DNA of 64,000 bases from a virus (lineage: Duplodnaviria > Heunggongvirae > Uroviricota > Caudoviricetes), in IMG/VR virus record IMGVR_UViG_3300032291_002057, positions 14,305-78,304 of that record; one strand, given 5' to 3'. Below are positions 7,949 to 53,425 of the stretch, piece by piece. Position numbers and translations under genes: made by a program. Position 1 is the stretch's first letter. Each line of letters starts with the position of its first letter. Below the pieces are notes generated by a model. That model ran no database searches. It was given only the letters and a program-made list of their open reading frames with translations, and had not been told where the DNA came from.

Positions 7949-8169
7949 ATAAGAAAATTAAAGAAATAGCATTGCAAACAGGTGGTAGTCACTACCCTAA
8001 TGTAAACAGCAAATTATTAGAAATGTTTGCTAACATGATTATTGATGAATGCATTAATGCGGTAAAAGAAACAGAATTTAAAGAAATTATATACACTACG
8101 TTTGATAGAGATATGGCACATGGTATAAAAATTAAATGTGTAGATAATATCAAACAGAGATTTAATTAA
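7930..8169 (+). CDS. small protein, divergent member of the MNE...ELIVREC family
   Basis: MNKKIKEIALQ...FANMIIDECINAVKE parallels the MNERIKEL...FAELIVRECA paralogs elsewhere in the window. Confidence 0.4.
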   Translation: MEVKTMNKKIKEIALQTGGSHYPNVNSKLLEMFANMIIDECINAVKETEFKEIIYTTFDRDMAHGIKIKCVDNIKQRFN

Positions 8170-9510: not shown

Positions 9511-10364
9511 TGAAGAAAGTTTTAATTACAGGTTGTTCAGGCTACATTGGCAGTCATCTAAGTAAGATGCTAATGGATACATTACGATATGAAGTTCATG
9601 GATTAGATATACGTGAGCCCCAGTATCCAATGCATAGATTTTATCGGCAAGATATCAATAGATTATTTACCATTGATGAAGAATTTGATTGTGTGATTCA
9701 TTTGGCTGCACTAGTTCGTGTAGGTGAAAGTGAACAGCAACCAATCAGTTATTACATAACTAACTTGAATGGCACAATGAATATAGTAAACAAGATTAAA
9801 ACTAAAAACTTTATCTTTGCTAGCACAGGTGCCGCACAAGACTGTGAATCAACATATGGTATTAGTAAACGTGCGGCAGAAGATGTTGTTAAAGAATTTT
9901 GTACAATCCATCGACCAACACCATATACAATCTTTAGATTTTATAATGTTATCGGAAGCACCGTCGTGGCTCCCACTAACCCCGATGGATTAATGTACAA
10001 TTTAATGAAGGCACGTGATACTGGTGAATTTACTATTTTTGGTAATGATTATGCTACACGTGATGGTACTTGTGTCCGTGACTATGTACATGTCATGGAG
10101 ATATGTGACGCACTAAAACAAGCAATTGAAAAACCTAGCAATCAGATAGAATGTCTTGGGCATGGTGTAGGACATACTGTGGGTGAAATAGTTGATCTAT
10201 TCAGAAAAGTAAACAATATACCTAATATTGATTTGTTAACTAAAATAGGTCCAAGAAGAAAGGGTGACCTTGAAACGAGCGTACTCGCCAATGTATCACC
10301 CTATATGCGTAATCTCTATACTATAGAAGATTTGCTTAATGTTTCAACAATAGTGTCGAAATAA
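9510..10364 (+). CDS. NAD-dependent sugar epimerase/dehydratase (SDR family)
   Basis: N-terminal Rossmann motif VLITGCSGYIGSHL; catalytic Y-x3-K (YGISKRAAE); ~284 aa, typical of UDP-sugar 4-epimerase-like enzymes. Confidence 0.7.
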   Translation: MKKVLITGCSGYIGSHLSKMLMDTLRYEVHGLDIREPQYPMHRFYRQDINRLFTIDEEFDCVIHLAALVRVGESEQQPISYYITNLNGTMNIVNKIKTKNFIFASTGAAQDCESTYGISKRAAEDVVKEFCTIHRPTPYTIFRFYNVIGSTVVAPTNPDGLMYNLMKARDTGEFTIFGNDYATRDGTCVRDYVHVMEICDALKQAIEKPSNQIECLGHGVGHTVGEIVDLFRKVNNIPNIDLLTKIGPRRKGDLETSVLANVSPYMRNLYTIEDLLNVSTIVSK

Positions 10365-13029
10365 TATTAGAATCATTTGCACTGATATCACCTTCACCCG
10401 GTGCAACAATAACATTATACTTCATACCAGCAGGAATAGACTTGCGTTTTGCCATATACTCATTGTAATCTAATATAGAGTTAGCACTTAATCCATACTC
10501 TTTAGCAAGACGTTGTTTTAATTCAGGTAACTTGTCAGGTTGAACCTGCCATTGACCTTCTGCGCCCTTAACTAAGTTTTTCTTTTCATCCTTAACTAAC
10601 AAGTCTTGGAACAAGTTATCAGGAACAATACGACTATTCTTAGTTGTATCTAAATTAGTATCTTTAGCTTTAACTTGTTTTTCTTGTGCTGTATTAGCAC
10701 CTTCACTCCAGTTGATAATGAAGTTAGGTGGTTTGTTACCTAGTGCGGCTGCAGCCATCTTGGTATAAGCATAGAACTTAGTGTCAGGATGCTTTGCTGC
10801 CATCTTTAATGCTAAGTCTAAGTATTCTGGACTAAAGAAGTCACCAGCATCGTGCCAGCGAATAGTAGTTTGCCAACCCTTAGGAAACTTCTTGTCACCC
10901 TTTTGTCCTGCTGCCTCTTCTTTAGAAATTTCAGCACTTAGTTGATTGAAGAAACCATCTGGATCATTTAATAGATATGTCAAGATACGACCATCACTTT
11001 GCCATGCATTCTTAAATTGAATTTTACCACCCTTCATAGCAAAACAATCTATTTTACATGAACCAGCACCTGGGCATGTATTAACAATGATTAGTTTGTT
11101 TGTGTCTTCATCTAGTGCAATACCAGTTAGCGCAGCAAAGCCAACGTTAAAGAATTGTTCAAACTCTCCGTTACTATGCTTCATCTTTTCATTTTGCTTT
11201 AGTAATGCTTTAGGGCGCTGTGCTAGTGTTTTCTTAACAGCATCCTCATCGTATGTTGTACCATCAGGCCCTAAGTATTCAACTACACTACTACGATGAA
11301 TGTATGGCATTTTGTATCTGTCTGTTTTTGTTTTACCAGATACATATTTTTCAATACCCTTTTTGTCTATCTTAACATTACCTGCTTTGTCTGTATCAGG
11401 AGTACCAACAATACGTTTCATATAGTCTTGGAACTCGTCACCACCAAACTCACGGCTTTGTGCCGGTAGTTTAGTTGCTTCACCTAAGCCAGATAGTTTA
11501 CGGATTCTGTCTAAATGTTCTTGCCCTTCTGCCACACCTTGCTCAAGGCTTTCTTTGGGATTACCTCCCAAGCCATCTTGAGAGTGACTATAACTCGGAG
11601 GTTTGCCTGACGGGTAACTGAGTTCCGGTAATGCAGCAGTATAACCAGGAATTTTATTATTTTTTAGCATATCCAATACTGTTTGCGCTTGCCCCTTGAC
11701 TACTTTAATGAACCAAGTAGCAGGATATTTGTCACCGGTGAATTTTTCATTGGTAGCGCCATCTGTGTATCTAATCTCTGATGTGTTGATTCCCTGTTTT
11801 TTTAATTCGTCACTCAGCTTTTCTAGATTTACCTTTTCACCTTCCCTTGAGTTAGACCCACCATAATAACCAACTGTTGTTCCAGGAATCCATACTTGGT
11901 CGTTAGGGCTTACTTTAACCTTAAAACTGGTTAATTTATTAACCCCTTGCTTGACAGTATCAACTATTCCTTCTGCTACACCTTGCTGTTTATCGCCTTG
12001 ACGCCACCAATATGCGTTGTATTCTTTGCTGTCGTAGCCGGGTACTTTGGCATCACTACCGTGCTTGGCACGCCACTCACGCTTGAATGCGTTGTATTGC
12101 GTCATACCTTTGTCTTCTTCTAAAGAGCCTTCCGCCAGACCTTCTTCAAGATCGTTAATTGCAGCCGAATAAGCCTTTAACACATAATCTTCTATATCTG
12201 GGTGATTACCCCCTATAAACCAATCCATACCAAAGTTACTATTAGGTTGAGGATATATAGTAGCAACTAACCCATTACGAAATTCTAAAACCCAAGTATC
12301 ATCTTCTCCGGGTGGACCGAACGCAAACTCTAAATCTTTTTTAGATGTTCTTAGTGAACCTTGTCTTGTTGTCCTATGTGCCTTCATTTCGGGATCATCA
12401 CTAATGTTCATAACTTCAGTTGGATCAAATTTATCTAAATACCGTTTATCATATTTTGATCTACCAAGCATACCTTCACCTTCCGCCATAGCTTGCTCAC
12501 CTTTAATTGCTTGTAGCATTGCACGGGCAACTACACGGTCTTTTTCTTTTTCGTCTTCTGGTAATTGAGCATAATTCTTTTTCATCAACTCTGCACGTTG
12601 TTGAAGTTTTGCTTCTAATTTACCTGCGGCTTGCAACTTAGCAGTATCATCAAATTGTTTAGGGTTCTGCACAAATGCTTGTGCTGTCACATTCCAACCT
12701 TTGTGAATAGCATCACTGATTGCTTCAATGTCAGTAACACCTTTATCAATCATTTGTTTGGCAAAAGCGGCTGACTTCAAGTTGGCTTGCCAACCAAATG
12801 TATTACCTGGACTACTACGACCGTATCCATATGCTTTGTCTAATGCTTCATCACTGATGGTTGCCAATTGCTGTACGCTTAATTGTTGTCCTTGACCTTC
12901 ATCAACCTCTTCTTCACCAGGCATGTCACCAGCTTTAGCAACGAATTGTTGCGGAGTCATAATTTGGATACCCTTAGGGGCTCCGGGCATCGTTGGCTCT
13001 ACTCCCTCAAATAATTCTTTAAAGTTCAT
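10336..13029 (-). CDS. large hypothetical protein (897 aa; acidic N-terminus, Cys cluster CPGAGSCKIDC)
   Basis: Long uninterrupted minus-strand ORF with protein-like composition; no family recognised by eye. Confidence 0.6.
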   Translation of the reverse strand: MNFKELFEGVEPTMPGAPKGIQIMTPQQFVAKAGDMPGEEEVDEGQGQQLSVQQLATISDEALDKAYGYGRSSPGNTFGWQANLKSAAFAKQMIDKGVTDIEAISDAIHKGWNVTAQAFVQNPKQFDDTAKLQAAGKLEAKLQQRAELMKKNYAQLPEDEKEKDRVVARAMLQAIKGEQAMAEGEGMLGRSKYDKRYLDKFDPTEVMNISDDPEMKAHRTTRQGSLRTSKKDLEFAFGPPGEDDTWVLEFRNGLVATIYPQPNSNFGMDWFIGGNHPDIEDYVLKAYSAAINDLEEGLAEGSLEEDKGMTQYNAFKREWRAKHGSDAKVPGYDSKEYNAYWWRQGDKQQGVAEGIVDTVKQGVNKLTSFKVKVSPNDQVWIPGTTVGYYGGSNSREGEKVNLEKLSDELKKQGINTSEIRYTDGATNEKFTGDKYPATWFIKVVKGQAQTVLDMLKNNKIPGYTAALPELSYPSGKPPSYSHSQDGLGGNPKESLEQGVAEGQEHLDRIRKLSGLGEATKLPAQSREFGGDEFQDYMKRIVGTPDTDKAGNVKIDKKGIEKYVSGKTKTDRYKMPYIHRSSVVEYLGPDGTTYDEDAVKKTLAQRPKALLKQNEKMKHSNGEFEQFFNVGFAALTGIALDEDTNKLIIVNTCPGAGSCKIDCFAMKGGKIQFKNAWQSDGRILTYLLNDPDGFFNQLSAEISKEEAAGQKGDKKFPKGWQTTIRWHDAGDFFSPEYLDLALKMAAKHPDTKFYAYTKMAAAALGNKPPNFIINWSEGANTAQEKQVKAKDTNLDTTKNSRIVPDNLFQDLLVKDEKKNLVKGAEGQWQVQPDKLPELKQRLAKEYGLSANSILDYNEYMAKRKSIPAGMKYNVIVAPGEGDISANDSNIISTLLLKH

Positions 13030-18788: not shown

Positions 18789-19246
18789 AAAAGGTGTATT
18801 ATGAAAAAATTGGACGTCGGTATTATCCTGTATGTGAGTATGATAATGATCTTTTGGATAGTTTCCCTAAAGGTAATCACTTGGTCATGTGTTACCCCGG
18901 GGGACAATCCCGTAGGTTTAACGTGGAACCTAACTATGCCGCGTTGATTGCCGCTAGTCGTGTGGCCGAAGATGCAATCTGCCGAGCTATTAGCAAGGCC
19001 AGTGAGCTACGCCCAAAACAGACTCCCATTACTCCCAAGCAGAAAAAGGCCTGGGAAGCACTGGCAAAATCATTTGGTGATGACTTGTGTACCCTACATG
19101 GACTCAGTGTGCATGACTGTGCCGAAGCAGGAGTCAAGGCCATGCAAGATGAAGCAGAAAAATTAATGACTGTACCATCAGTTAAAAAAGCCTATGAACA
19201 TTTTCTATTAGTAGCAGAATTAACAAAGGAACAAAGCTATGATTGA
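18785..19246 (+). CDS. hypothetical protein
   Basis: Start taken at the ATGA overlap (MKKVYYEK...) inside track ORF 18767-19246. Confidence 0.35.
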   Translation: MKKVYYEKIGRRYYPVCEYDNDLLDSFPKGNHLVMCYPGGQSRRFNVEPNYAALIAASRVAEDAICRAISKASELRPKQTPITPKQKKAWEALAKSFGDDLCTLHGLSVHDCAEAGVKAMQDEAEKLMTVPSVKKAYEHFLLVAELTKEQSYD

Positions 19247-19604
19247 TGCAGTATTATTTTTGTTGGTTCTACTTTTTATTAAACATTGGTATATTGATTT
19301 TGTCAATCAAACTAATGAAGAAGTGGCAAGCAAAGGTATCTATGGCGATGGTGCTGGTCTGGGGCATTCAATTAAACATGGCTTTGCCACACTGTTATGT
19401 ATTCTTTCAGTAACAGGATCACAATTCTTTGGATATGCAATGATTCTAGCATTTATTGACTTTGTTGTGCATTACCATGTTGATTGGCTTAAAATGAATT
19501 ATGGCAATCGTGATATCACGACCCCTGCTTTCTGGAATCATTTAGGGCTAGATCAACTTGCACATTATTTGACTTATTTGTTTATTGCAAGGATGATTGT
19601 ATGA
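19239..19604 (+). CDS. hypothetical membrane protein (3-4 predicted TM helices)
   Basis: Hydrophobic segments LFLLVLLFI, LCILSVTGSQFFGYAMILAFIDFVV. Confidence 0.4.
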   Translation: MIDAVLFLLVLLFIKHWYIDFVNQTNEEVASKGIYGDGAGLGHSIKHGFATLLCILSVTGSQFFGYAMILAFIDFVVHYHVDWLKMNYGNRDITTPAFWNHLGLDQLAHYLTYLFIARMIV

Positions 19605-19804
19605 ACGAACGAATTAAAGAACTAATGCAACAAGCAGGCACTGATATTAGTGGCAAATGGATGGGCGTGGACCATGCTGAAAAATTTGCCGAGTTGCTTG
19701 TACGGGAATGTGCCGACGTTCTACTTGAGCAGAAGAAAGAACCTTTCCCTCTTGATCCTGATTTTGCCGCAAGTTTAATCAAAGAACATTTTGAAGTTGA
19801 CTGA
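19601..19804 (+). CDS. MNERIKEL-family small protein (paralog 1)
   Basis: MNERIKELMQQ...FAELLVRECADVL...EHFEVD; 5' nucleotide sequence ATGAACGAACGAATTAAAGAACT is shared with the other copies. Confidence 0.5.
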   Translation: MNERIKELMQQAGTDISGKWMGVDHAEKFAELLVRECADVLLEQKKEPFPLDPDFAASLIKEHFEVD

Positions 19805-27831: not shown

Positions 27832-27853
27832 ACAATTGTCCAAACAAAAATGG

Positions 27854-27882
27854 TTGACAATAAATCGTTTTGGACTTATACT
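27854..27882 (+). promoter_or_regulatory. early promoter copy A (TTGACAATAAATCGTTTTGGACTTATACT)
   Basis: TTGACA-17-TATACT; the downstream leader is near-identical to copy E at 43446. Confidence 0.6.
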
Positions 27883-27915
27883 ATAGTCTGTTCAGTTGAT
27901 TAAAGGAGTTTTCAA

Positions 27916-28116
27916 ATGATTAACGAATCAAAAGTTTTGGAAGTTGTCAAATCTGTAACCGAGACCAATGCTTATTTTTTCAACGGTACGTTGTTTTTGG
28001 AAACTATTGATAGCAAAATTGCTACTGACGTTTTCTTTGAAATTTGCGAAAAGGTTACAGCCGCGCTTGCTTTTGGTAAGGTTGGTAATGAAACTTCTTA
28101 CGATTTTTTCGGTTGA
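27916..28116 (+). CDS. hypothetical small protein (cassette gene)
   Basis: AAAGGAG RBS; its stop TGA lies inside the -35 TTGACA of the next promoter. Confidence 0.5.
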   Translation: MINESKVLEVVKSVTETNAYFFNGTLFLETIDSKIATDVFFEICEKVTAALAFGKVGNETSYDFFG

Positions 28117-28141
28117 CAATAAATCGTTTTGGGCATATAAT
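28113..28141 (+). promoter_or_regulatory. early promoter copy B (TTGACAATAAATCGTTTTGGGCATATAAT)
   Basis: Perfect TTGACA-17-TATAAT. Confidence 0.65.
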
Positions 28142-28166
28142 ACTTGTATTGATTGATTAAAGGAGC

Positions 28167-28505
28167 TTGCAAATGATTAACGTTAAAACACCCCTGAGTA
28201 CTAATGGTTCTGGTTATTGGTCTGATGTCGCTAAGACAGTACTTGTGACTGGATTAGAACTTTCGTATGTAAATGATGAGAATGACTTTGGTGAACTACG
28301 TGTTCATTTTGATACAAATACTTGGGACGTTGACGCTGACGGTCTTATCTATACTGACAAACAATTCATTAATGATTTAAAAGTATTACTTAATCGCATG
28401 GAATTAGATACCGATGTTTCTTATTCTGAACAAGGTATGCAAGGTGATACTTTTGTTAGTTTGGATGTTGGTCCTGAATTCATTAAATCTTTCAAAATGG
28501 CTTGA
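28167..28505 (+). CDS. hypothetical small protein (cassette gene)
   Basis: AAAGGAG RBS; its stop TGA is embedded in the next TTGACA. Confidence 0.5.
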   Translation: MQMINVKTPLSTNGSGYWSDVAKTVLVTGLELSYVNDENDFGELRVHFDTNTWDVDADGLIYTDKQFINDLKVLLNRMELDTDVSYSEQGMQGDTFVSLDVGPEFIKSFKMA

Positions 28506-28530
28506 CAATAAATCGTTTCGGGTATATAAT
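28502..28530 (+). promoter_or_regulatory. early promoter copy C (TTGACAATAAATCGTTTCGGGTATATAAT)
   Basis: TTGACA-17-TATAAT; leader near-identical to copy F at 43727. Confidence 0.65.
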
Positions 28531-28562
28531 AGAATCTTAAACAGTCGAAACAAGGAGTTAAA

Positions 28563-29863: not shown

Positions 29864-31213
29864 ATGTCAGCAAGTTGGATTCGTAAGTTAAACGAGAGTG
29901 ATAGTCGCCTTCATAAAGAAGATGTAATTTTGCAGGCGCTTGAGGCAAGTGTCCTAGGTAGCAGTAACGCTATCAATTTCTTGTCATTTACTAAAGCATG
30001 TTACAATCCTTATGTGACGTTTGGTGTTCGTCAAGTGCCAGACACAGTTGGTATTACTGATGCAGAAAATCCTTGGGAAGAGTTTAACGAGTTGATGCTA
30101 CAACTTAGTCAACGTAGATTGACCGGACATGCCGCACGTGATGCTATTCAAAGTATGGCTGAACGATTTGATAGTGATGAGTGGAATACATTCTTAGCAC
30201 CTGTATTGCGTAGAGACTTACGTGCAGGTATTAGTGATAAGACAATTAACAAAATTTGTAAAAAAACAGATTATGAAATTCCTGTATTTGGTTGTCAACT
30301 AGCAACCAATAGTGAAGGTCGCCCTGAGATGAAAGGCATCAAACGTCTTGAACCTAAACTTGACGGTGTGCGTATGTTGTTGATGGTTATCCCAGGTGCA
30401 AGTGAAGGTGTAACTACTATTTGTTTTAGTCGTAATGGAAAACAGTTTGATAACTTTGGTCACATTGAAGAACAAGTACGTGACAATTGGGTTAAGATTG
30501 TTCGTGCATGTAAAGGGGTAGATCAAGGTCGTAGTTTGATTGATGGTTTTGTACTTGATGGTGAAGTGATTGGTAATACATTCCAAGAACTAATGCGCCA
30601 AGCACGCCGCAAAACTGATGTCCAAGCTGATGACAGTGTGTTTAATATTTTTGATATTATTCCATTAAGTGATTTCCGTGAAGGACATTGGAATGCTCAA
30701 CTACGTAAACGTATTGCACTACTTGATGCAATGCGACCTGTTGTTGATACGATGCCCAACGTAGAACTATTACCTCACATCATGGTTGACTTAGATACAG
30801 CCGCAGGTCGTGATCAACTTGAACGTTATGCCAAAGACAACGTGAATGCAGGCTTTGAAGGCATTATGATTAAAGAGTTAGAAGCCCCATATGTCTGTAA
30901 ACGTAGTACAGACTGGATGAAATGGAAACCTACGATTACTGTAGACTTGGAGGTCATCGGTGTTGAAGAAGGTACAGGACGAAATATGGGAAGAGTTGGA
31001 GCTCTTGTTTGCGCCGGAATTGATGACGGTAAAGAGATCCATGTCAATGTTGGTAGTGGCTTTAGCGATACTGATAGAGATAATCTTTGGAGTGACCGCA
31101 ATTTGGTTATTGGTCGAACTTGTGAAATCTTGTGTGATGTAATTACACAAAATCGTGATGGTACATACAGTTTGCGATTCCCTCGCTTTGTTAGATTTAG
31201 GGATGATAAATGA
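29864..31213 (+). CDS. ATP-dependent DNA ligase
   Basis: Adenylation motif I KLDGVRM (K-x-DG-x-R); 449 aa; strong RBS AAAGGAAAAAAA-ATG. Confidence 0.85.
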   Translation: MSASWIRKLNESDSRLHKEDVILQALEASVLGSSNAINFLSFTKACYNPYVTFGVRQVPDTVGITDAENPWEEFNELMLQLSQRRLTGHAARDAIQSMAERFDSDEWNTFLAPVLRRDLRAGISDKTINKICKKTDYEIPVFGCQLATNSEGRPEMKGIKRLEPKLDGVRMLLMVIPGASEGVTTICFSRNGKQFDNFGHIEEQVRDNWVKIVRACKGVDQGRSLIDGFVLDGEVIGNTFQELMRQARRKTDVQADDSVFNIFDIIPLSDFREGHWNAQLRKRIALLDAMRPVVDTMPNVELLPHIMVDLDTAAGRDQLERYAKDNVNAGFEGIMIKELEAPYVCKRSTDWMKWKPTITVDLEVIGVEEGTGRNMGRVGALVCAGIDDGKEIHVNVGSGFSDTDRDNLWSDRNLVIGRTCEILCDVITQNRDGTYSLRFPRFVRFRDDK

Positions 31214-31422
31214 ACGAACGAATTAAAGAACTTTACGACCAGGCTAACATCCGTTATTCAGTATATGAAATATTGAAACCACGAGATGAACGAAAAAATA
31301 TTCCGGATATATTCGCCGAGTTGATTGTGCGGGAATGTGTCCAGGCCGTAAAAAATGTCGGTGGCTACAACGAAGACTATCATATGAATGCTATCAAAAA
31401 ATATTTCGGAGTTGAAGAATGA
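31210..31422 (+). CDS. MNERIKEL-family small protein (paralog 2)
   Basis: MNERIKELYDQ...FAELIVRECVQAV...KYFGVEE; ATGA overlap with ligase. Confidence 0.5.
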   Translation: MNERIKELYDQANIRYSVYEILKPRDERKNIPDIFAELIVRECVQAVKNVGGYNEDYHMNAIKKYFGVEE

Positions 31423-31604
31423 TTAAACTTTGGTTAGCATTTATTATTATCGCTGTTCTTATTCACTTTGGTATTACTGCTTTGAGAAATATGAATGGTT
31501 TGGAACAATTAGCCTTGACAAAAAGCATAGGATATAGTATACTTGTATCAATGGCAGCAGTAATGTTGATCACAGTATTTGTAATTTTATTTTAAAGGAA
31601 AAAC

Positions 31605-36974: not shown

Positions 36975-38180
36975 ATGACCACTGATTCTAAACTAAACCA
37001 TTGCTCTTTTTGTAATACACATAAAGATAAAGTTAAAAAGCTAATTGTCGGAGATGATGTTGCAATTTGTAGTGACTGTATTGATTTATGCACCCAGCTT
37101 ATAGTTGATGATTCGTCAATTCCAGAAACCGAAACCAAACCAGAAGAAATAAAACACGACCCTTCATCTATTAAAGAATATTTAGATTTGCATGTGATTG
37201 GGCAAGACAGTGCAAAAGCAGTATTAAGCGTTGCTATTGCTAATCACTATAAACGTATTACTCATCCTCCTAAAGATTTAGAAATACAAAAAGGTAATGT
37301 ATTGATAATTGGACCCACTGGATCAGGTAAAACATTACTTGCTAAAACTGTCGCCAAATATCTCAAAGTGCCCTTTGTAGTAGCTGATGCTACGAGTTTG
37401 ACCGAAGCTGGATATGTGGGTGATGACGTTGAAAGTATGATTAGTATGCTAGTAAACGCCGCGGGCGGCGATGCTAAATTAGCTGAACGTGGTATTGTAT
37501 TTGTTGATGAAATTGACAAGATTGCACGTAAAAGTGAAGGATCTAGTATTACCCGTGATGTATCAGGTGAAGGTGTACAGCAAGCACTATTGAAATTAGT
37601 TGAAGGAACAGTATGTCGCATTCCAGCAGGTGGCGGAAGAAAACACCCCGGTGGTGACATGTTAGAAGTTAACACCAAAAATATTTTATTCATTGCAGGA
37701 GGAGCCTTTGTGGGATTGAAAGAAATTATCAACAATCGCACAAACGGAACAAGTATGGGATTTGGTGCTAAGATTAAAGATCAGAATACAGAGGGTGACT
37801 TAACATTAGTTACGCCTGATGACTTAACACGTTTTGGAATGATTCCTGAATTTATTGGACGATTTACAACCACAGTTAGTATTGGTGAACTAAGTAGAGA
37901 AGACCTTAAAAAGGTATTGACAGAAGTAAAAAATAATTACATCCAACAATATCAATATTTGTTGAGTATTGACGATATTGAGTTAACTTTTACAGACGAT
38001 GCACTTGACCAAATTGTAGATAATTGTCTTAAACTAAAAACAGGGGCACGTGGATTGCATACTGAAATTGAAAAAGTGTTGATGCCACACATGTTCAATA
38101 CTCGCAAATACCGTGAAAACAACATTAAAAAGATAAATATCAATCAGGAGCAAGTATTAAAACCAAAAGCAATTTTATGA
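36975..38180 (+). CDS. clpX: ATP-dependent Clp protease ATP-binding subunit ClpX
   Basis: N-terminal zinc-binding domain CSFC...CSDC; Walker A GPTGSGKTLLAKT; near full-length colinear match to ClpX including the IGF-loop region. Confidence 0.9.
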   Translation: MTTDSKLNHCSFCNTHKDKVKKLIVGDDVAICSDCIDLCTQLIVDDSSIPETETKPEEIKHDPSSIKEYLDLHVIGQDSAKAVLSVAIANHYKRITHPPKDLEIQKGNVLIIGPTGSGKTLLAKTVAKYLKVPFVVADATSLTEAGYVGDDVESMISMLVNAAGGDAKLAERGIVFVDEIDKIARKSEGSSITRDVSGEGVQQALLKLVEGTVCRIPAGGGRKHPGGDMLEVNTKNILFIAGGAFVGLKEIINNRTNGTSMGFGAKIKDQNTEGDLTLVTPDDLTRFGMIPEFIGRFTTTVSIGELSREDLKKVLTEVKNNYIQQYQYLLSIDDIELTFTDDALDQIVDNCLKLKTGARGLHTEIEKVLMPHMFNTRKYRENNIKKININQEQVLKPKAIL

Positions 38181-40026: not shown

Positions 40027-40347
40027 TTACTTTGCCACTGTCATTCTAGGCTTTCTCGGAGCCTTTGGCTTAGCAGGTGCTTTAGTTTTAGGGGCAGCCG
40101 GAGCTTTTGGCTTAGCAGGCGCTTTAGCTTTTGGTGTTTCAACTGGAGTTGCAGTTTCAACTGGAGTTGCAGTTTCAACTGGAGTTGCAGTTTCAACTTT
40201 CACTGGTTCTGCAACAGGTACAACAGGGGTTTCTATCTTATATGGTACCTCTGTTGCTGTGTGAGGTGCTACACCTAACGGTAACGTTGATGGGGTAGAT
40301 TCTCTGGGTTTGTCCATACCGAATAGATTTTTTAAAAACTTAATCAT
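40027..40347 (-). CDS. repeat protein: TPVETA x4 plus KAPAKPKAP lysine-rich tail (histone H1-like low complexity)
   Basis: Encoded by 18-bp tandem DNA repeats; RBS AGGAGAAAAT on minus strand. Confidence 0.5.
   Translation of the reverse strand: MIKFLKNLFGMDKPRESTPSTLPLGVAPHTATEVPYKIETPVVPVAEPVKVETATPVETATPVETATPVETPKAKAPAKPKAPAAPKTKAPAKPKAPRKPRMTVAK
40057..40198. repeat. tandem repeats (18-bp unit CAACTGGAGTTGCAGTTT x3.5 and an adjacent ~36-bp unit x2) inside the gene
   Basis: Direct reading of 40057-40198. Confidence 0.8.
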
Positions 40348-43160: not shown

Positions 43161-43184
43161 AGCCCCGTTTTTGGGGCTTTTTTA
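43161..43184 (+). terminator. rho-independent terminator after clpP
   Basis: AGCCCC-GTTTTT-GGGGCT followed by TTTTTT. Confidence 0.7.
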
Positions 43185-43187
43185 CGG

Positions 43188-43216
43188 TTGACAATAAAAT
43201 ATTTTGGGCATATAAT
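43188..43216 (+). promoter_or_regulatory. early promoter copy D (TTGACAATAAAATATTTTGGGCATATAAT), leaderless
   Basis: TTGACA-17-TATAAT; ATG 43223 lies 6 nt after the -10. Confidence 0.6.
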
Positions 43217-43222
43217 TCATGT

Positions 43223-43441
43223 ATGAAATCAAGAATTTATATCACTCAAAAAGATAACGACAAATACTTTAAGCAAAAATTACCTACATTCCGTAATGGT
43301 TTTTGCTATATTGAACGTGTTGTAACTTTTGAACAGGACCCAACCAATTCGTTTGACGAGGGTGAGTGGGGTTACATCACTGTAGGTAAACAAAAAGTAT
43401 TCGTTTTTGGTGACAAAAATTCCTTCGAAATTTGGAAGTAA
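43223..43441 (+). CDS. hypothetical small protein (cassette gene)
   Basis: 72-aa ORF directly downstream of promoter D. Confidence 0.45.
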   Translation: MKSRIYITQKDNDKYFKQKLPTFRNGFCYIERVVTFEQDPTNSFDEGEWGYITVGKQKVFVFGDKNSFEIWK

Positions 43442-43445
43442 ATGG

Positions 43446-43474
43446 TTGACAACAAATCATTTTGGGTTTATACT
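43446..43474 (+). promoter_or_regulatory. early promoter copy E (TTGACAACAAATCATTTTGGGTTTATACT)
   Basis: TTGACA-17-TATACT; leader TATAGTCTGTTCAGTTGATTAAAGGAG is identical to copy A. Confidence 0.6.
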
Positions 43475-43505
43475 ATAGTCTGTTCAGTTGATTAAAGGAG
43501 CATTT

Positions 43506-43730
43506 ATGTCTTTCACACAGTACATGATGGATTTTTATGGTCCCCAAAGTGATCTTTACCCCGAGTTGAATTTCAACGAAACACAAATCGCCATCGCTAC
43601 AGGCATCTACAAAATGCGCCTGACTACCGAAGGTAGGGAATTCTATGGGGACACTATGGATCGTGAAATGGTTCGTGATATCATCCTTGAAGCCCGTGAA
43701 AAAGTTTTGCCAGAGTTTGCAAAGGCTTGA
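43506..43730 (+). CDS. hypothetical small protein (cassette gene)
   Basis: ATG 8 nt after AAAGGAG (as in copy A); the track ORF start at 43488 would read through the RBS; stop TGA inside the next TTGACA. Confidence 0.45.
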   Translation: MSFTQYMMDFYGPQSDLYPELNFNETQIAIATGIYKMRLTTEGREFYGDTMDREMVRDIILEAREKVLPEFAKA

Positions 43731-43755
43731 CAATAAATCATTTTGGGTATATAAT
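43727..43755 (+). promoter_or_regulatory. early promoter copy F (TTGACAATAAATCATTTTGGGTATATAAT)
   Basis: Perfect TTGACA-17-TATAAT; leader AGAATCTTAAACAGTC...GGAGTTAAAA shared with copy C. Confidence 0.65.
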
Positions 43756-43789
43756 AGAATCTTAAACAGTCAACAAACAGGAGTTAAAA

Positions 43790-44245
43790 ATGGGTACACG
43801 TTCACTTATTGCAGTTGTTCATGGTGACAATTACAAAACAGTTTATTGTCATTGGGATGGCTACCTGTCGCACAATGGTCGCATTTTGCAAGAACACTAC
43901 AATAGTTCAAAAGCCAATCATCTTGTTGCATTGGGCAATATCTCTAGTCTTGGAACTGAGATTGGCGAAAAGCATCCCTTCAGTCAATTTGATACTGACA
44001 TGCCAGCCAAAGAGTTTGAAGAAAAGTATGGCAACATGACTACATTCTATGGTCGTGACCGTGAAGAAGAAGGTCAAGAGTTTATCACGCACACCAGCAA
44101 AGAATCATTGATTGAACATTTCAACGAGTCTTGGTGTGAGTTTGCATACATTATGAAAGACAGCACATGGTATGTTATGTATCAAGGTGATACTGAATTG
44201 CGTGTGTTGTCAGAAGAATTGGCTAAAGTAACTGAGGAAGTTTAA
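43790..44245 (+). CDS. hypothetical protein (cassette gene)
   Basis: 151-aa ORF after the shared leader. Confidence 0.5.
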   Translation: MGTRSLIAVVHGDNYKTVYCHWDGYLSHNGRILQEHYNSSKANHLVALGNISSLGTEIGEKHPFSQFDTDMPAKEFEEKYGNMTTFYGRDREEEGQEFITHTSKESLIEHFNESWCEFAYIMKDSTWYVMYQGDTELRVLSEELAKVTEEV

Positions 44246-44574
44246 TGGAAGCAGTAGTAGAAACAACAGTATGGAGTGATAGCAATCTTGCCAATCACAC
44301 TTACCTTCTTGATGGTACTAAAATGATTGCGTACATTAAAGTTGGTTCTACTACTCCATTCTATTTTAAGAACCCGATCACCATCGACAAACGTGGTCGC
44401 AAGTTCCAAGCATTGAAAGTTAATCCTTTCAAAAAGATAAAAGAAAAATCTACTATAATTAAAGTATCTGGTAGCAAGGGTAATATATATAGTATTGATA
44501 CAGTAGATAAAACATGCACATGCCCTGGATACACATTTCGCGGTACTTGTAAACATATTACGGAGTTGGTATGA
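44245..44574 (+). CDS. SWIM zinc-finger protein
   Basis: C-terminal CTCPGYTFRGTCKHI (C-x-C-x(n)-C-x-H). Confidence 0.5.
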   Translation: MEAVVETTVWSDSNLANHTYLLDGTKMIAYIKVGSTTPFYFKNPITIDKRGRKFQALKVNPFKKIKEKSTIIKVSGSKGNIYSIDTVDKTCTCPGYTFRGTCKHITELV

Positions 44575-44810
44575 ACGAACAAACAATTGATCTTTACAAA
44601 CAAGCAACAGAGTTTGCCTATGATTCTATCGGAAAAGAACATTCCAATACCGCATACTTTCAAGGTACTATTGCAGGAAAGTTTGCCGAGTTGATGTTGA
44701 CAGAATTTAAAAGTGTATTACTTAACATGATGAATAAAGGTCAAGGTGAGTTTGATACTTTGGACCAAGCACTTACAGAAATTAACGAACATTTCGGAGT
44801 TGAAGAATGA
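44571..44810 (+). CDS. MNE-family small protein (paralog 3)
   Basis: MNEQTIDLYKQ...FAELMLTEF...EHFGVEE; starts ATGAACGAAC. Confidence 0.5.
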   Translation: MNEQTIDLYKQATEFAYDSIGKEHSNTAYFQGTIAGKFAELMLTEFKSVLLNMMNKGQGEFDTLDQALTEINEHFGVEE

Positions 44811-45178
44811 CCAATGAAATCACCGTAGAAATGCTGGACCGCAAGATTGCATGGTGTGAGCAAAAGCTAGCGGACGCCAAGGCAGCAGCCATCCAGCACA
44901 TGCAGGATTTTTACTTTGAAAAGACCCGGGCCAGTGTGACCGAGTCTTGGCCTGAAACATTCTCATCACAGGAACTTGCTGATACTTTGGGTATAGAGCA
45001 AGTGCGGTATAGAATCTACTACAGCCGAGATAATCTCACTTGCCGACTGTTTGTGTTTCGCCCTTACTGTACACCAACTGAAATGGAAACAATGTTGGGT
45101 ATGGGGTTTGTGTTTGCACAAGATGGTGATACAGAAAATATCCCTGATAAACCAGTAGAAGAGGAAGTTGAAGAATGA
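44807..45178 (+). CDS. hypothetical acidic protein embedded in the MNE array
   Basis: 123 aa, ends VEEEVEE; ATGA overlaps on both sides. Confidence 0.45.
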   Translation: MTNEITVEMLDRKIAWCEQKLADAKAAAIQHMQDFYFEKTRASVTESWPETFSSQELADTLGIEQVRYRIYYSRDNLTCRLFVFRPYCTPTEMETMLGMGFVFAQDGDTENIPDKPVEEEVEE

Positions 45179-45351
45179 ACGAACGAATGTTTGAACTATT
45201 AGCGCAAGCCCGCAATCAACCACTTGATGTGGTCAAGGCTGCACCATTTGGATCAGCCATGCTTACCCCTGCACAATTGGAAACATACACCAAATTGGTT
45301 ATTGAAGAATGTGCTAAAATAACCAAACAACATTTTGGAGTTGAAGAATGA
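45175..45351 (+). CDS. MNE-family small protein (paralog 4, 58 aa, not in the ORF track)
   Basis: MNERMFELLAQ...LVIEECAKITKQHFGVEE; ATGA overlaps. Confidence 0.45.
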   Translation: MNERMFELLAQARNQPLDVVKAAPFGSAMLTPAQLETYTKLVIEECAKITKQHFGVEE

Positions 45352-45584
45352 ACGAACGAATTAAACAACTTGAACTTCAGGCTGCTGACGGCACTGTCGA
45401 TCCTAATGGACCATTTACAGCGGAAGAATTCAACAACTTTACAAAAAAGTTCGCCGAGTTGATTGTTAAGGAAATGTGTAGTGTGTTAGACAAGGCACAA
45501 TGGGACAAAGGTGAAGATTGGATATGTGCTGACGGCACACGAATCATCCCACAGATTAAAGAACATTTCGGAGTTGAAGAATGA
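45348..45584 (+). CDS. MNERIKEL-family small protein (paralog 5)
   Basis: MNERIKQLELQ...FAELIVKEMCSV...EHFGVEE. Confidence 0.5.
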   Translation: MNERIKQLELQAADGTVDPNGPFTAEEFNNFTKKFAELIVKEMCSVLDKAQWDKGEDWICADGTRIIPQIKEHFGVEE

Positions 45585-45819
45585 TTGAAAGTATTATTAT
45601 TGTCGCAGTTGTTATTATTGTTGGTGTAAATATTCTAACAACAGTATCAACAAGATTTCGCCGCTGGTTATATAAGGATATGACATGAATGAAGAATTAA
45701 AGCAATTGGTTTTAAAAGCAGGTGCACCTAAAGAAGTGCTTGATGAATTGTGGTTCAATATCTTTTGTCAACAATTCGTTGATGTATTACTCACCGAAGT
45801 AGAAACAATTTTATAAATT

Positions 45820-51081: not shown

Positions 51082-51423
51082 TTAGATATTAGGGCCTTTG
51101 GGGTAAGGAATTAAATTCATTTCTATTCCATATCCAATAACGCATGACAATGTATCTTTAGTTGCGATTATAGTCCATGTTTTTGATAATGGATTAACCC
51201 AAACAGTCATTACTGTTCCGGCAGTATCACTTGTTTTTCCATACAAAAAGGGAATTTCTCGAAATGACCCGCTTAATTGTTTTATTAATTTTTCAGTTTC
51301 AAAACAGGGGATATCTGTAACTATAGATTCTACAATAGCGTTTTCTATTGGTTCTTTAGCATGTGTATTATTTGCTAGTAGCCCTATACACACCATCCCA
51401 ATCAGTAGGTAAATTTTGTTCAC
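51082..51423 (-). CDS. small secreted protein
   Basis: Signal peptide MNKIYLLIGMVCIGLLANNTHA; 113 aa; overlaps the cyclase gene end. Confidence 0.45.
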   Translation of the reverse strand: MNKIYLLIGMVCIGLLANNTHAKEPIENAIVESIVTDIPCFETEKLIKQLSGSFREIPFLYGKTSDTAGTVMTVWVNPLSKTWTIIATKDTLSCVIGYGIEMNLIPYPKGPNI

Positions 51424-53425
51424 GTAGTTCTCCTATTCTTTCAATCATCATTTCATAATAATGATCCATTTTACCGTCAAACTCTCCTTTGAGTTTATCA
51501 ATATAGTGTAACGCACTTGTCCACTTTTGTTCACGGTAATAGTCAAGCATTAGGTCATGCAACTCACGTGCCGATAGATACTCTACCATTGCGCCTGCAT
51601 CTGTTTCTAATACTGTATAGATGTTTACACCTTCTTTTTTGCCTTTAACAGCAATACAGTCTAATTCTAACACAAAATATTCGTCTTGTATATACTCTGC
51701 GGTTTTACTGCCCAATACAATTTTCACTCCGTAGGGCTTACTCTGACCTTCCAATCTACTAGCCAAATTAACGCCATCACCCAAACAAGTGTAATCAAAG
51801 CGTTGAATTGATCCCATGTTACCAACGACCACAGTATCGGTATTAATGCCAAGACCCATACCGAAAGCAGGAATACCTTCTGCCGTAACTTCTTTATTAA
51901 ATTCATCTAAACTCCCCATCATTTGTAAACCTGTACGTACAGCATTCTTTGCATGATTAATATCATCTAACGGAGCATTCCAAAATGCCATCTGTGCGTC
52001 ACCAATATACTTATCTAGTGTGCCTTCGTTCTCTATTATTTTAGCAGTCATTGCAGTCATATATCGATTCATAATCTTTGTAAGGCCTTGTACATCTTTG
52101 CCATAGTGTTCGCTGATACTAGTAAAGCCGCGAACATCTGTAAACATAATACTCAATTCACGTGATTCACCGCCAAGTTGCAATAACTTAGGATTCTTTT
52201 GTAATTTCTCAACCATAGCTGGACTCAAGTATGTCCCAAACTGTTTCTTTATTTGTTGCTTTTGTAAGAACTCGCTGATGAACTTGACACCATAGGCGTG
52301 CAGAGAGACCAAGATAATTCCAAGGGTAAACGCAGTACTGTCAAATAACCATAAAAAATTAGAGAACATATAGGCACTACCAAAGACAGCACCAACACAT
52401 AACGCAATAACCGACGCCAATCCAACATAAGTCCACCTTGTTAAAAATAATAATAACACACTTGCAATAGCTATAGCAAGTATTTCTAGTCCATCTGCAT
52501 AATCAGGTCTTTGTATAACTGATCCGTTAATCATTGTTCCGATTACAGCGGCTTGCATATCTTGTGGCCACACACTACCTATACTAGTGGGCACTGGATT
52601 GCCTAATCCTGCGGCTGCTGTACCTACTATCACAATAGCACCCTCAAAGTCTTTTGGCATATTCATTAGACTTACATTTTTGTTTACTTGGCTGTAGTCA
52701 ATCCAAATGCGACCTAAATTGTCTGTAGTTATAGGCCCGAACTTTGGTATACGCATTTTCTCAACGCCATTACTACTCAATTTAACCTGAACAGTAGAAT
52801 CACCTGCGGCTACTCTTAATGTTTCCATTGATAATGATGGGTACACCTTACCATCAACTGTTATGATTAATGGTATTCTGCGATTGACACCGTCTACTTC
52901 AGGTAGAGTACTTACGATACCTACACCTGCAGCATTGTTTTCTAACTGTGGTATGTTAGCTATTAATCCAGGATACTGAACAATTTGATTCATGTGTTCA
53001 GGGCCTAAAATCGCACTACCTGGATTACGAGGTTCGTTGCGTGTTTTATCACTGGGTATGCTTGGAAGCACAACTGGATATTTATTTAAAGTTCGTGCTA
53101 AGATTGGGTCTTGACCCAATCTATCTGAATTAGGCATAAGCACGTTGAAAACAACAAGTCCTGCATTACGTTGATACAGGTCTTCGATAATTTTTGCGTA
53201 CTCGCCTCTTGGTAAAGGCCATTGTCCATACTTAGCTAACGCATCTTCATCAATGTTAACTGTGTAAATGTTGTTAGTTGTTTTTTCTTTGTGTGTTATT
53301 AGTGTGTCAAAATAACGTAATCTAACACTTTCAACAAAGGAAGGGTCTATAGTTCTTACTAATAATACTAAGATTAATGTAAGAAGTGCAGTCCAGGGGC
53401 TTATTATTATTTTTTTAATGTCCAT
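51368..53425 (-). CDS. CHASE2-sensor membrane-anchored class III adenylate/guanylate cyclase
   Basis: N-terminal TM plus periplasmic CHASE2-like region, three central TM helices, C-terminal cyclase domain (FTDVRGFTSISE, YIGDAQMAFWNAP, GLGINTDTVVVGNMGS, LGDGVNLASRLE). Confidence 0.8.
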   Translation of the reverse strand: MDIKKIIISPWTALLTLILVLLVRTIDPSFVESVRLRYFDTLITHKEKTTNNIYTVNIDEDALAKYGQWPLPRGEYAKIIEDLYQRNAGLVVFNVLMPNSDRLGQDPILARTLNKYPVVLPSIPSDKTRNEPRNPGSAILGPEHMNQIVQYPGLIANIPQLENNAAGVGIVSTLPEVDGVNRRIPLIITVDGKVYPSLSMETLRVAAGDSTVQVKLSSNGVEKMRIPKFGPITTDNLGRIWIDYSQVNKNVSLMNMPKDFEGAIVIVGTAAAGLGNPVPTSIGSVWPQDMQAAVIGTMINGSVIQRPDYADGLEILAIAIASVLLLFLTRWTYVGLASVIALCVGAVFGSAYMFSNFLWLFDSTAFTLGIILVSLHAYGVKFISEFLQKQQIKKQFGTYLSPAMVEKLQKNPKLLQLGGESRELSIMFTDVRGFTSISEHYGKDVQGLTKIMNRYMTAMTAKIIENEGTLDKYIGDAQMAFWNAPLDDINHAKNAVRTGLQMMGSLDEFNKEVTAEGIPAFGMGLGINTDTVVVGNMGSIQRFDYTCLGDGVNLASRLEGQSKPYGVKIVLGSKTAEYIQDEYFVLELDCIAVKGKKEGVNIYTVLETDAGAMVEYLSARELHDLMLDYYREQKWTSALHYIDKLKGEFDGKMDHYYEMMIERIGELREQNLPTDWDGVYRATSK

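Follow-up and report, generated by a model that had tools for sequence, protein, structure and literature searches.

RESULTS

A large family of small genes built from anchors and cassettes

Several short open reading frames (ORFs) in the window, the whole 64,000-nt stretch of tailed-phage DNA analysed here, belong to a gene family that is probably diversified by recombination. Its members would exchange two variable cassettes at short blocks of near-invariant DNA, and the last of these blocks would also serve as a joint for translational coupling to the next gene. Judged from profile matches, five window ORFs (copies, named by their first position; Table 1) are members of a very large, undescribed family of uncultured lytic phages. 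When 1,176 window ORFs were scanned with the family hidden Markov model (HMM), these five copies scored E = 1e-34 to 1e-8, and the divergent copy 7945 was recovered in the same scan (E = 3e-6). The family comprises 8,265 clusters at 50% identity (E <= 1e-3), with at least 7,829 matches in a search that scored no more than 8,000 candidates, and arrays hold up to 12 different members within 7.6 kb.

No window member and none of three homologues gave a match at or near the thresholds in Pfam-A, PHROGs v4, or NCBIfam 20. A PDB profile search with the family gave no significant match (best E = 0.45), Rfam gave none, and matches in BFVD were solely uncharacterised proteins of uncultured phages. No family member was found among the cultured phages of INPHARED by megablast, by tblastn with two queries, or by blastn with the junction; the searches returned only one uncultured Manatee Spring contig (E = 7e-3) and junction matches at chance level. 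The best-looking junction match, gp028 of Rheinheimera phage Barba, was rejected as an unrelated zinc-ribbon ORF that ends on a generic strong ribosome-binding site. For host assignment, the DNA pattern was searched in bacterial genomes, giving 19 matches, of which five were real members, all on MAG contigs with inconsistent taxonomic labels. The family is thus missing from Pfam, PHROGs, and NCBIfam despite its 8,000 or more clusters at 50% identity and as many as a dozen copies in one genome.

The preliminary description had listed the same five ORFs as full members, and their coordinates and translations (67, 70, 79, 58, and 78 aa in genome order) were reproduced, its count of six being one more than its own list. 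Three copies depart from the shared motifs that it gave, MNERIKEL, FAELIV, and HFGVEE: copy 19601 ends in HFEVD, copy 45175 carries YTKLVIEEC in place of FAELIV, and copy 44571 starts with MNEQTIDL. Its divergent member (7930-8169) does belong to the family, with the ATG at 7945, and its truncated 43-aa member (45687-45818) exists as an ORF at 45685-45816, a weak match that is probably a decayed or truncated relative. The run described as a tandem of three copies is interrupted: it consists of copy 44571, an unrelated 123-aa ORF, copy 45175, and copy 45348, in this order, all chained by ATGA overlaps. The 123-aa ORF has no Pfam, PHROG, or NCBIfam match, and its N-terminus is similar to an extra module fused in the homologue P0046. 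Of the dispersed copies, 31210 is ATGA-coupled on both sides, to a DNA ligase gene upstream and a 58-aa membrane ORF (31419-31595) downstream, and at or near the stop of copy 19601 no ORF of 40 aa or more begins.

Table 1. Positions of family members, anchors, neighbouring ORFs, and promoter cassettes in the window
Position	Strand	Feature	Remarks
7945-8169	+	Divergent family member, 74 aa	HMM E = 3e-6; without 3ʹ anchor
19601-19804	+	Dispersed family member, 67 aa	Degenerate 3ʹ block (HFEVD, GGAG lost)
31210-31422	+	Dispersed family member, 70 aa	AF2 pLDDT 88.9
43179-43224, 43440-43500		Sister copies of the sigma70 promoter cassette	Repeat families D2, D3, D5
43718-43781	+	Repeated sigma70 promoter cassette, TTGACA-17-TATAAT (12/12)	Heads the cluster's transcription unit; repeat families D2, D3, D5
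44571-44810	+	Family member, 79 aa (MNEQTIDL...FAELMLTEF...HFGVEE)	HMM E = 1e-30; V1 of the commonest type (V1 cluster 0)
44807-45178	+	Unrelated 123-aa ORF between family copies	Starts at the ATGA of the preceding copy; C-terminus EEEVEE and stop on GTTGAAGAATGA junction
45175-45351	+	Family member, 58 aa	HMM E = 1e-8; degenerate central block 45283-45312 (TYTKLVIEEC); V2 nearly absent
45348-45584	+	Family member, 78 aa, canonical anchors	HMM E = 1e-34; AF2 pLDDT 90.5
45348-45371	+	5ʹ anchor ATGAACGAACGAATTAAACAACTT	Repeat families D4, D6; equivalents 19601-19624, 31210-31233, 44571-44594, 45175-45198
45447-45476	+	Central anchor AAGTTCGCCGAGTTGATTGT..GAA ATG	Equivalents 19682-19711, 31309-31338, 44679-44708; holds the L144 crossover zone
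45558-45584	+	3ʹ anchor/junction AAAGAACATTTCGGAGTTGAAGAATGA	Repeat family D1; equivalents 31396-31422, 44784-44810, 45325-45351; final 12 nt recur at 45167-45178; degenerate version at 19778-19804
45581-45688	+	Hydrophobic 35-aa ORF, coupled downstream gene	Begins with the ATGA that closes copy 45348 (3ʹ anchor)
45685-45816	+	43-aa ORF (MNEELKQL...QQFVDVLLTEV), probably decayed or truncated family member	HMM E = 0.2 only

Three anchors are nearly invariant at silent sites

Family genes are laid out as anchor-V1-anchor-V2-anchor. The anchors are blocks of 15-30 nt, nearly identical across thousands of genes that otherwise cannot be aligned, with the consensus ATGAACGAACGAATT for the 5ʹ block, AAGTTCGCCGAGTTGATTGT..GAATGT for the central block, and AAAGAACATTTCGGAGTTGAAGAATGA for the 3ʹ block. 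The preliminary description had pointed out the near-identity of the gene ends in DNA, and the conserved-end sequences are indeed far above chance in the window: GTTGAAGAATGA occurs five times (0.65 expected), ATGAACGAACGAAT seven times (0.41 expected), and TTCGCCGAGTTGATTGT five times (0.16 expected). The central block, which had been overlooked, is as conserved in DNA as the ends.

Codon statistics were drawn from 275 unique genes on 120 IMG/VR stretches chosen by a codon-degenerate DNA pattern. Anchor codons were near-invariant at synonymous sites and rare in other genes, with frequencies in anchors versus background of 95% versus 43% for AAC, 95% versus 11% for CGA, 95% versus 38% for AAG, 92% versus 20% for GCC, 87% versus 31% for GAG, 90% versus 24% for TTG, 99% versus 21% for GGA, and 99% versus 36% for GTT. 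The V cassettes of these same genes had background-like codon use. The GC content at third codon positions (GC3) of the anchors was independent of genome GC3 (slope 0.01), and that of the V cassettes tracked it weakly (slope 0.25). In pairs of genes whose V1 and V2 were both unrelated (n = 2,728), 77-87% of the anchor sites with identical amino acids had the same codon, compared to 57-66% in homologous V cassettes of 50-85% amino-acid identity, all homologous cassette pairs being pooled (the WDKGEDW V2 type alone gave two IMG/VR matches).

The same held among the window copies: where the amino acid in a block was identical, the codon was also the same in 115 of 135 copy pairs over the three blocks, compared to 70.7 +/- 7.2 (maximum 106) in 5,000 runs simulated from window codon usage. 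The possibility that amino-acid conservation alone accounts for the identical gene ends, put forward with the preliminary description as the result that would refute it, therefore fails, as the anchors are nearly invariant at silent sites with rare codons. Since the central block is equally invariant, this is not solely an effect of the stop/start junction.

The 3ʹ anchor as a probable translational-coupling joint

In the 3ʹ block, GGAG is followed after a 7-nt spacer by an ATG that overlaps the TGA stop (ATGA). The block finished in ATGA in 172 of 176 canonical ends, and after 93% of these came an ORF of 30 aa or more. Among the canonical ends with sufficient downstream sequence, 146 of 166 (88%) had an overlapping downstream ORF of at least 40 aa, compared to 42 of 95 non-canonical ends (44%), and 49 non-family ORFs ended on 3ʹ-block DNA. 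In this phage, GGAGTT with an A-rich spacer after it is a normal ribosome-binding site, which the motif of the 3ʹ block matches. The junction thus has the marks of a coupled one: a Shine-Dalgarno-like motif 5-9 nt before a start that overlaps the stop, and a real ORF downstream. From this arrangement, the 3ʹ block most likely also serves the next gene as ribosome-binding site and is thus a probable translational-coupling joint, which would explain the GVEE tail and the presence of the same 12-15 nt at the ends of unrelated ORFs. In this way, a conserved protein tail may be set by a ribosome-binding site and carried into unrelated genes. For the 3ʹ block, the coupled-reinitiation element suggested earlier is supported by the GGAG spacing, the ATGA, and the excess of downstream ORFs; as an account of the whole gene, it fails at the equally invariant central block.

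Could selection on mRNA explain everything, with a ribosome-binding site and reinitiation at the 3ʹ/5ʹ junction, codon choice in the 5ʹ initiation region, and recombination only incidental? The constant geometry of the canonical ends, their association with an overlapping downstream gene, and the same tail on unrelated ORFs all suit this explanation, as does an unrelated Rheinheimera phage gene that ends in EHLGGEE and a stop on AGGAGGTGAAGAATGA. We nevertheless consider it improbable. The silent-site invariance of the central block lies away from any start codon, a ribosome-binding site needs neither a fixed spacer nor fixed upstream codons, and the explanation does not account for V1 and V2 reassorting freely, as described below. 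RNA secondary structure lent the idea no support either: neither the junctions nor the central block had consistent stability, junction RNAs folded no more stably than shuffled sequence (z from -1.9 to +1.3), and Rfam held no match.

Probable exchange of V1 and V2 between family genes

Both kinds of cassette, V1 and V2, measure about 60-100 nt; they differ in length and cannot be aligned with one another. In 283 genes, 179 V1 types and 158 V2 types formed 258 combinations, and only 9% of the pairs that shared V1 also shared V2. Independence was imperfect (34 pairs shared both, compared to 13.5 expected), and from these counts V1 and V2 appear to reassort almost independently. The commonest pattern between contigs was a single cassette in common with unrelated flanks; the DNA of such shared cassettes was 94-100% identical even though the contigs had nothing in common in the other cassette or in the flanks. 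One crossover could be mapped: nt 473-615 of the sequence L144 correspond to window 45324-45466 (98%) and nt 599-718 to window 31312-31431 (99%), and what the two matches share is exactly TTCGCCGAGTTGATTGT, so that in this close relative of two window copies the crossover falls within the central block of 17 nt. In some homologues, the central anchor is present twice or a 5ʹ anchor lies in the interior. The evidence for exchange is comparative, consisting of this mosaic pattern and the one mapped crossover in metagenome assemblies; reassortment, cassettes common to unrelated contexts, the crossover, and duplicated central anchors all bear out the earlier suggestion of recombination-driven diversification of a cassette family.

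Mutagenesis by a diversity-generating retroelement was considered and rejected because the cassettes differ in length, are mutually unalignable, and recur whole in identical form. Targets of such elements have a fixed-length variable region with adenine-specific substitutions relative to a template repeat. No reverse transcriptase was found among the annotated large window ORFs.

We also considered a homing-like process, in which the anchors would be the targets of a dedicated nuclease, for example a small GIY-YIG enzyme, and repair of the breaks would drive cassette conversion. Homing endonuclease targets are typically invariant and 15-30 nt long, which is the size of the anchors. An ORF of about 105 aa with a GIY-YIG catalytic domain (PF01541) was the commonest neighbour, present at 18 of 120 loci and at most 1 kb from a family member in 12 of 17 cases, and several such ORFs end in NTFGVK and a stop on a junction variant that leads directly into a family gene. 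However, the 64-kb window and most loci have no GIY-YIG homologue, the co-occurrence may be lineage synteny, as with ligase and FEN, and the protein consists of the catalytic domain alone, with no DNA-binding domain, so that we regard this process as unlikely.

Plain descent from a recent common ancestor, with constraint on the protein, fast-diverging interiors with indels, and no role for the blocks as DNA, would suit anchors that code for conserved helices in a fold predicted with confidence, and paralogue ancestry predicts some excess of codon identity. It fits poorly with the recurrence of identical cassettes in unrelated combinations and contexts, even though V cassettes are unalignable and variable in length. 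It also fits poorly with anchor codons that are rare, independent of genome GC, and shared by unrelated-cassette pairs more often than homologous cassettes share their own, which makes this explanation very unlikely.

Chimeric assembly at the common blocks is scarcely credible and was rejected as a general cause, although all related sequences are metagenome contigs and the region in sample ERZ27247881 is broken into contigs of 0.7-0.8 kb: blocks of at most 30 nt are shorter than the reads and the final assembly k-mer (k141 in contig names), an independent Logan assembly (L142) contains window 43735-45362 with 100% identity, several mosaic proteins stand on 5-14 contigs each, and codon-level invariance does not depend on assembly.

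Predicted fold and expression

AF2 models of copies 45348 and 31210 (pLDDT 90.5 and 88.9) placed the three anchors in three helices, in line with the small helical bundle predicted earlier, and the anchor helices probably form the core of the fold. The proteins are acidic, with a median pI of 4.8 and a net charge of -6, and members of the family are thus predicted to be acidic three-helix bundles of about 60-90 aa. Fold searches returned generic helical matches only. The genetic surroundings are early replication and nucleotide-metabolism genes. As the cluster lies downstream of perfect matches to sigma70 promoters, its proteins are probably expressed early.

DISCUSSION

Cassettes shuffled by recombination, with a 3ʹ anchor that has a second use as a coupling joint, are in our judgement the probable explanation of this family. 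The anchors would act as short homology patches for homologous recombination between paralogues within one genome and between co-infecting phages. Exchange at the anchors could swap V1 and V2 independently, duplicate genes into arrays, and place cassettes beside unrelated genes; repeated exchange, together with constraint on the protein, would homogenise the anchors even at silent sites. Copies with decayed anchors would leave the exchange, for which 7945, 45175, and 45685 are the candidates in the window. In its second role, the 3ʹ anchor would supply the next gene with the Shine-Dalgarno GGAG, the 7-nt spacer, and the ATGA overlap. The two readings offered in the preliminary description, a reinitiation element and recombining cassettes, would then both hold, each for different parts of the gene. 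Some points bear on how exchange could work. An anchor length of 15-30 nt is at the low end for efficient phage recombination systems and counts against recombination, and no recombinase was recognised among the searched large window ORFs. Homogenisation across phages of 35-54% GC would require frequent co-infection or a common host pool. Instead of recombination, some other function in DNA or RNA could also lie behind the constraint on synonymous sites of the central block.

Given that the proteins are probably early, acidic, hypervariable, and present in many copies, they are candidates for host takeover or anti-defence. Their likely role would be that of a diversifiable repertoire of small binders directed against host factors. 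More speculatively, and at present with little probability, the anchors might be working parts of programmed diversification, in which a phage nuclease (the promoter-proximal GIY-YIG protein being a candidate) or a dedicated pathway cuts or pairs them, and a repertoire of anti-host binders is continually reassembled from V1 and V2 cassettes circulating in the whole population. If true, phages would have an equivalent of the antigenic variation that gene conversion produces elsewhere. The design of the anchors may also be of use for combinatorial libraries of small binders.

Modular exchange at short conserved borders has a long history. The linker model of Susskind and Botstein, dating from 1978, reportedly proposed that short conserved module borders direct the exchange of non-homologous modules. 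Boundary sequences later described in lambdoid phages belong to this model, which concerns gene or functional modules of temperate phages and has limited direct support. The modules of the present family are only parts of genes, about 60-100 nt long, and the support is statistical and drawn from hundreds of genes. If cassette shuffling at the anchors is the right explanation, the family would be an unusually clean and statistically tractable case, below the level of the gene and with thousands of variants, of modular exchange in phages directed by short conserved linkers.

The gp38 adhesins of T2/T6-type phages carry hypervariable segments between conserved glycine-rich motifs (PMC3157838; Tetart et al. 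1996/1998 cited there). As in our family, conserved structural-core motifs alternate with hypervariable segments, exchanges in or near the motifs make chimeras (PMC3157838), and the segments form a population-wide interchangeable library. The two have no kinship in sequence or fold: here the anchors are helical rather than glycine-rich, the genes lie outside a tail-fibre context, and the products are probably early, cytoplasmic-type proteins of 60-90 aa with many copies per genome, not virion adhesins. The present family also differs in having three anchors and two cassettes, silent-site invariance across contigs of 35-54% GC, and a 3ʹ anchor with a probable second use as ribosome-binding site for the gene that follows.

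PeSLs of T4-type phages are intergenic mobile units of a promoter plus a stem-loop (PMC2839356, PMC4122927). In both cases, short conserved DNA repeats run through regions rich in small uncharacterised ORFs, genes would be shuffled, deleted, and inserted when copies recombine, and an expression signal would double as the recombination site. The shuffling seen with PeSLs has its parallel here in cassettes common to unrelated contexts and in the crossover inside the central block. Unlike PeSLs, however, the anchors lie inside coding sequence (two of three) or at the stop/start overlap, not in intergenic DNA, and neither a promoter-like site on the anchors nor a stable hairpin at the junctions was found. 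Separately, the repeated promoter cassettes of the window resemble PeSLs.

In CdiA-CT and other polymorphic toxins, too, variable protein ends arise when stand-alone cassettes recombine at a conserved junction motif (PMC3482391). Such toxins are large, secreted by bacteria, and accompanied by immunity genes, whereas our family has no toxin or delivery domains and no immunity pairs.

Family members in the window

Translation of the five full members (copies 19601, 31210, 44571, 45175, and 45348, named by start coordinate) agreed with the preliminary description. When the family HMM was run against the 1,176 window ORFs, they gave E = 1e-34 to 1e-8, the divergent copy 3e-6, and the 43-aa ORF only 0.2; the last is present, although at corrected coordinates. 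That description counted six full members, of which five were listed, and ascribed to all an HFGVEE C-terminus and a FAELIV block; copy 19601 ends in HFEVD and copy 45175 is without FAELIV. The reported tandem run at 44571-45584 does hold three copies, but it is broken by an unrelated 123-aa ORF that starts and ends on family junction DNA, the junction being the 3ʹ block with its stop/start overlap. In homologue P0046, the HFG motif is followed by an additional module, fused in-frame (...HFGIDPNEITEDMLARSIKWMEQQLEDKKHFGVEE), that is similar to the N-terminus of this ORF (MTNEITVEMLDRKIAWCEQKL), a likeness suggestive of a gene fusion or fission event at the junction. Hydrophobic membrane-type ORFs lie ATGA-coupled directly upstream or downstream of family members. 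Elsewhere in the window, the CHASE2/cyclase ORF is a signalling protein unusual in a phage genome.

Features located in the window
Feature	Coordinates	Strand	Description
Full members	19601-19804, 31210-31422, 44571-44810, 45175-45351, 45348-45584
Divergent copy	7945 (ATG)
43-aa ORF	45685-45816
Non-family ORF	44807-45178	+	123 aa
Membrane-type ORFs	45581-45688, 31419-31595, 19239-19604	+	35, 58, 121 aa
Sigma70 promoter cassettes, one cluster	27845-27908, 28104-28157, 28493-28546
Sigma70 promoter cassettes, other cluster	43179-43224, 43440-43500, 43718-43781		Repeated, perfect; upstream of family cluster
Terminator-like hairpin	43161-43178		Directly 5ʹ of a promoter cassette
CHASE2/cyclase ORF	51368-53425	-	685 aa; CHASE2 sensor, adenylate/guanylate cyclase catalytic domain
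ClpX-like AAA+ ATPase	36975-38180	+	ClpX zinc finger
GP88-domain protein	10336-13029	-	897 aa
Short tandem DNA repeats	40057-40198		18-nt unit TTGCAGTTTCAACTGGAG x3, 42-nt unit x2

Nucleotide conservation of the anchors

Each gene reads anchor-V1-anchor-V2-anchor, with two variable cassettes between 5ʹ, central, and 3ʹ blocks. The end motifs GTTGAAGAATGA and ATGAACGAACGAAT matched the window 5 and 7 times, against 0.65 and 0.41 expected, and the central motif TTCGCCGAGTTGATTGT 5 times against 0.16. Terminal DNA identity beyond that expected from the amino acids, as initially suspected, was borne out: at shared-residue positions of the three blocks, the same codon was used in 115 of 135 copy pairs, compared to 70.7 +/- 7.2 (maximum 106) in 5,000 simulations with codons drawn from the window's own usage. 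The anchor codons are rare in this genome (AAC 0.32, CGA 0.09, GCC 0.11, GAG 0.18, TTG 0.21, and GGA 0.25).

Aligning genes on their anchors revealed sharp edges of conservation around the 5ʹ block, ATGAACGAACGAATT(AAAGAACTT), the central block, AAGTTCGCCGAGTTGATTGT followed by a 4-nt relaxed stretch and GAATGT, and the 3ʹ block, ATTAAAGAACATTTCGGAGTTGAAGAATGA. Among 275 unique genes, sampled independently of codon choice, a single codon, mostly a rare one, was near-exclusive at anchor sites: AAC (95% versus 43% in the background), CGA (95% versus 11%), AAG (95% versus 38%), TTC (88% versus 33%), GCC (92% versus 20%), GAG (87% versus 31%), TTG (90% versus 24%), GGA (99% versus 21%), and GTT (99% versus 36%). 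Codon use in the variable parts resembled the background. Even with V1 and V2 both unrelated (2,728 gene pairs), the same codon occupied 77-87% of identical-amino-acid anchor sites; for homologous cassettes of 50-85% amino-acid identity, the figure was only 57-66%. Anchor GC3 was independent of surrounding genome GC3 (slope 0.01), and cassette GC3 depended on it weakly (slope 0.25, r = 0.34). Conservation at the DNA level is thus real and confined to the anchors.

The 3ʹ block at gene junctions

The 3ʹ block, TTCGGAGTTGAAGAATGA, carries GGAG, 7 nt, and then an ATG overlapping the TGA stop. This ATGA terminus was found in 172 of 176 genes ending in FGV(E/K)E, and in 93% of the 172 that ATG opens an ORF of 30 aa or more; 41 of these downstream genes belong to the family, and the others are diverse. 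Overlapping downstream ORFs of at least 40 aa followed 146 of 166 canonical ends versus 42 of 95 other ends. In copy 19601, from which GGAG has been lost, no ORF of 40 aa or longer begins at or near the stop. GGAGTT with an A-rich spacer is a common ribosome-binding site in the window phage, and the 3ʹ block probably couples translation of successive genes. In all, 49 non-family ORFs finish on 12-15 nt of the block, acquiring a GVEE tail, including window ORF 44807-45178 and short remnants (e.g., IGVEE). A family-unrelated zinc-ribbon ORF, gp028 of Rheinheimera phage Barba1A (L122, 1279-1524), ends in EHLGGEE on GAACATTTAGGAGGTGAAGAATGA; this tail looks convergent, its protein end dictated by the next gene's ribosome-binding site.

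An RNA or translation signal alone is one rival explanation. As the central block is conserved too, the stop/start junction can be at most part of the explanation, and the RNA element first proposed there was, as a secondary structure, unsupported by a folding test.

Protein, promoters and gene neighborhood

AF2 models of copies 45348 (pLDDT 90.5) and 31210 (88.9) showed an identical layout of three helices bearing the three anchors; the anchors probably form the fold core, with the cassettes on variable surfaces. The family is acidic (median pI 4.8, net charge -6), and the only matches in structure searches were generic helical bundles and uncharacterized proteins from uncultured phages. Our guess is that the proteins may serve as a diversifiable binder set against host factors.

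Cluster neighbors are early-type (ligase, FEN, phosphatases, and kinases). The window's six promoter cassettes are strong and 50-60 nt long (GGTTGACAATAAATCGTTTTGGGyATATAATA...). GIY-YIG ORFs of ~105 aa (PF01541, catalytic domain only) were the commonest neighbor of family arrays, occurring in 18 of 120 IMG/VR loci (L001 11457-11946; L003, L006, L059, L062, L091, L115, and others) and nowhere in the window. A conserved TTGACA-17-TATAAT promoter cassette lies immediately before them, and their ATG comes ~6 nt past the -10 box, so their mRNA may be leaderless. Several end in ...NTFGVK and a stop on a junction variant, with a family member starting straight after.

Family size and distribution

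Among 8,000 candidates scored, a profile of the window copies matched at least 7,829 proteins, all unnamed and none with a Pfam domain. When 1.84 billion representatives were searched exhaustively with HMMER, 8,265 clusters at 50% identity passed E <= 1e-3 and 1,454 passed E <= 1e-10; almost all were single-domain proteins 68-110 aa long. Contigs of 4-460 kb contributed at least 120 IMG/VR stretches with the codon-degenerate KEHFGVEE pattern. In ~1 Mb of these loci, 332 ORFs belonged to the family, as many as 12 different members lying within 7.6 kb. No member was found among the cultured phages of INPHARED, and in bacterial genomes the family was confined to a few MAG contigs. Real members in the genome collection came only from L137 (Haliscomenobacter sp. 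MAG, 183-kb contig), L128, L136, L131, and L139, whose taxonomic labels conflict (Bacteroidota versus Actinomycetota MAGs) and which are probably mis-binned phage contigs. No description of the family turned up in the paper collection searched by motif and concept.

Mosaicism and its explanation

We split 283 genes at the anchors and clustered V1 and V2 separately. The 179 V1 and 158 V2 clusters occurred in 258 combinations; one V2 type was joined to 38 V1 types, and 17 V2 types shared one V1 type. Only 9% of V1-sharing pairs also had V2 in common (34 pairs versus 13.5 expected under independence). Some contig pairs had V2 at 94-97% DNA identity with V1 and both flanks unrelated, and the reverse was also found. 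Among 28 contig pairs with a shared cassette, a single common cassette in otherwise unrelated context was commonest, and only one pair was syntenic throughout. A gene of L144, a close relative, was 98% identical to window 45324-45466 and then 99% to window 31312-31431, the two matches overlapping exactly on the 17-nt central block, which maps one crossover inside an anchor. Judged from sequence, unequal exchange at anchors seems to have produced proteins in which the central anchor occurs twice (P0123, P0130, and P0148), a 5ʹ anchor lies internally (P0251), or one ORF contains two complete units (P0229).

The best-supported explanation is that the anchors double as conserved helices of the fold and as short homology patches. 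Homologous recombination there would swap cassettes, build arrays, and relocate cassettes; repeated exchange would homogenize the anchors, which may account for their silent-site identity, and the 3ʹ anchor would also provide the next gene with its ribosome-binding site and start. A nuclease-driven system and plain descent are rivals to anchor recombination. Chimeric assembly is unlikely as a general cause of the mosaics, since blocks are shorter than reads and the final k-mer, an independent assembly reproduced window 43735-45362 at 100% identity, and several mosaic proteins recur in 5-14 contigs each.

Comparison with known systems

In gp38 adhesins, hypervariable segments are separated by conserved motifs at which exchanges occur (PMC3157838), and T4-type phages undergo PeSL-mediated shuffling (PMC2839356). 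The family is likened in function to both, the former for its design of conserved motifs versus hypervariable segments, and is a member of neither; the window's promoter cassettes are reminiscent of the PeSL regulatory cassettes. Distinctive here are the sub-genic cassettes, joints invariant at silent sites across very diverse phages, the dual role of one joint, which also serves as ribosome-binding site, and the great size that this family has despite being unannotated.
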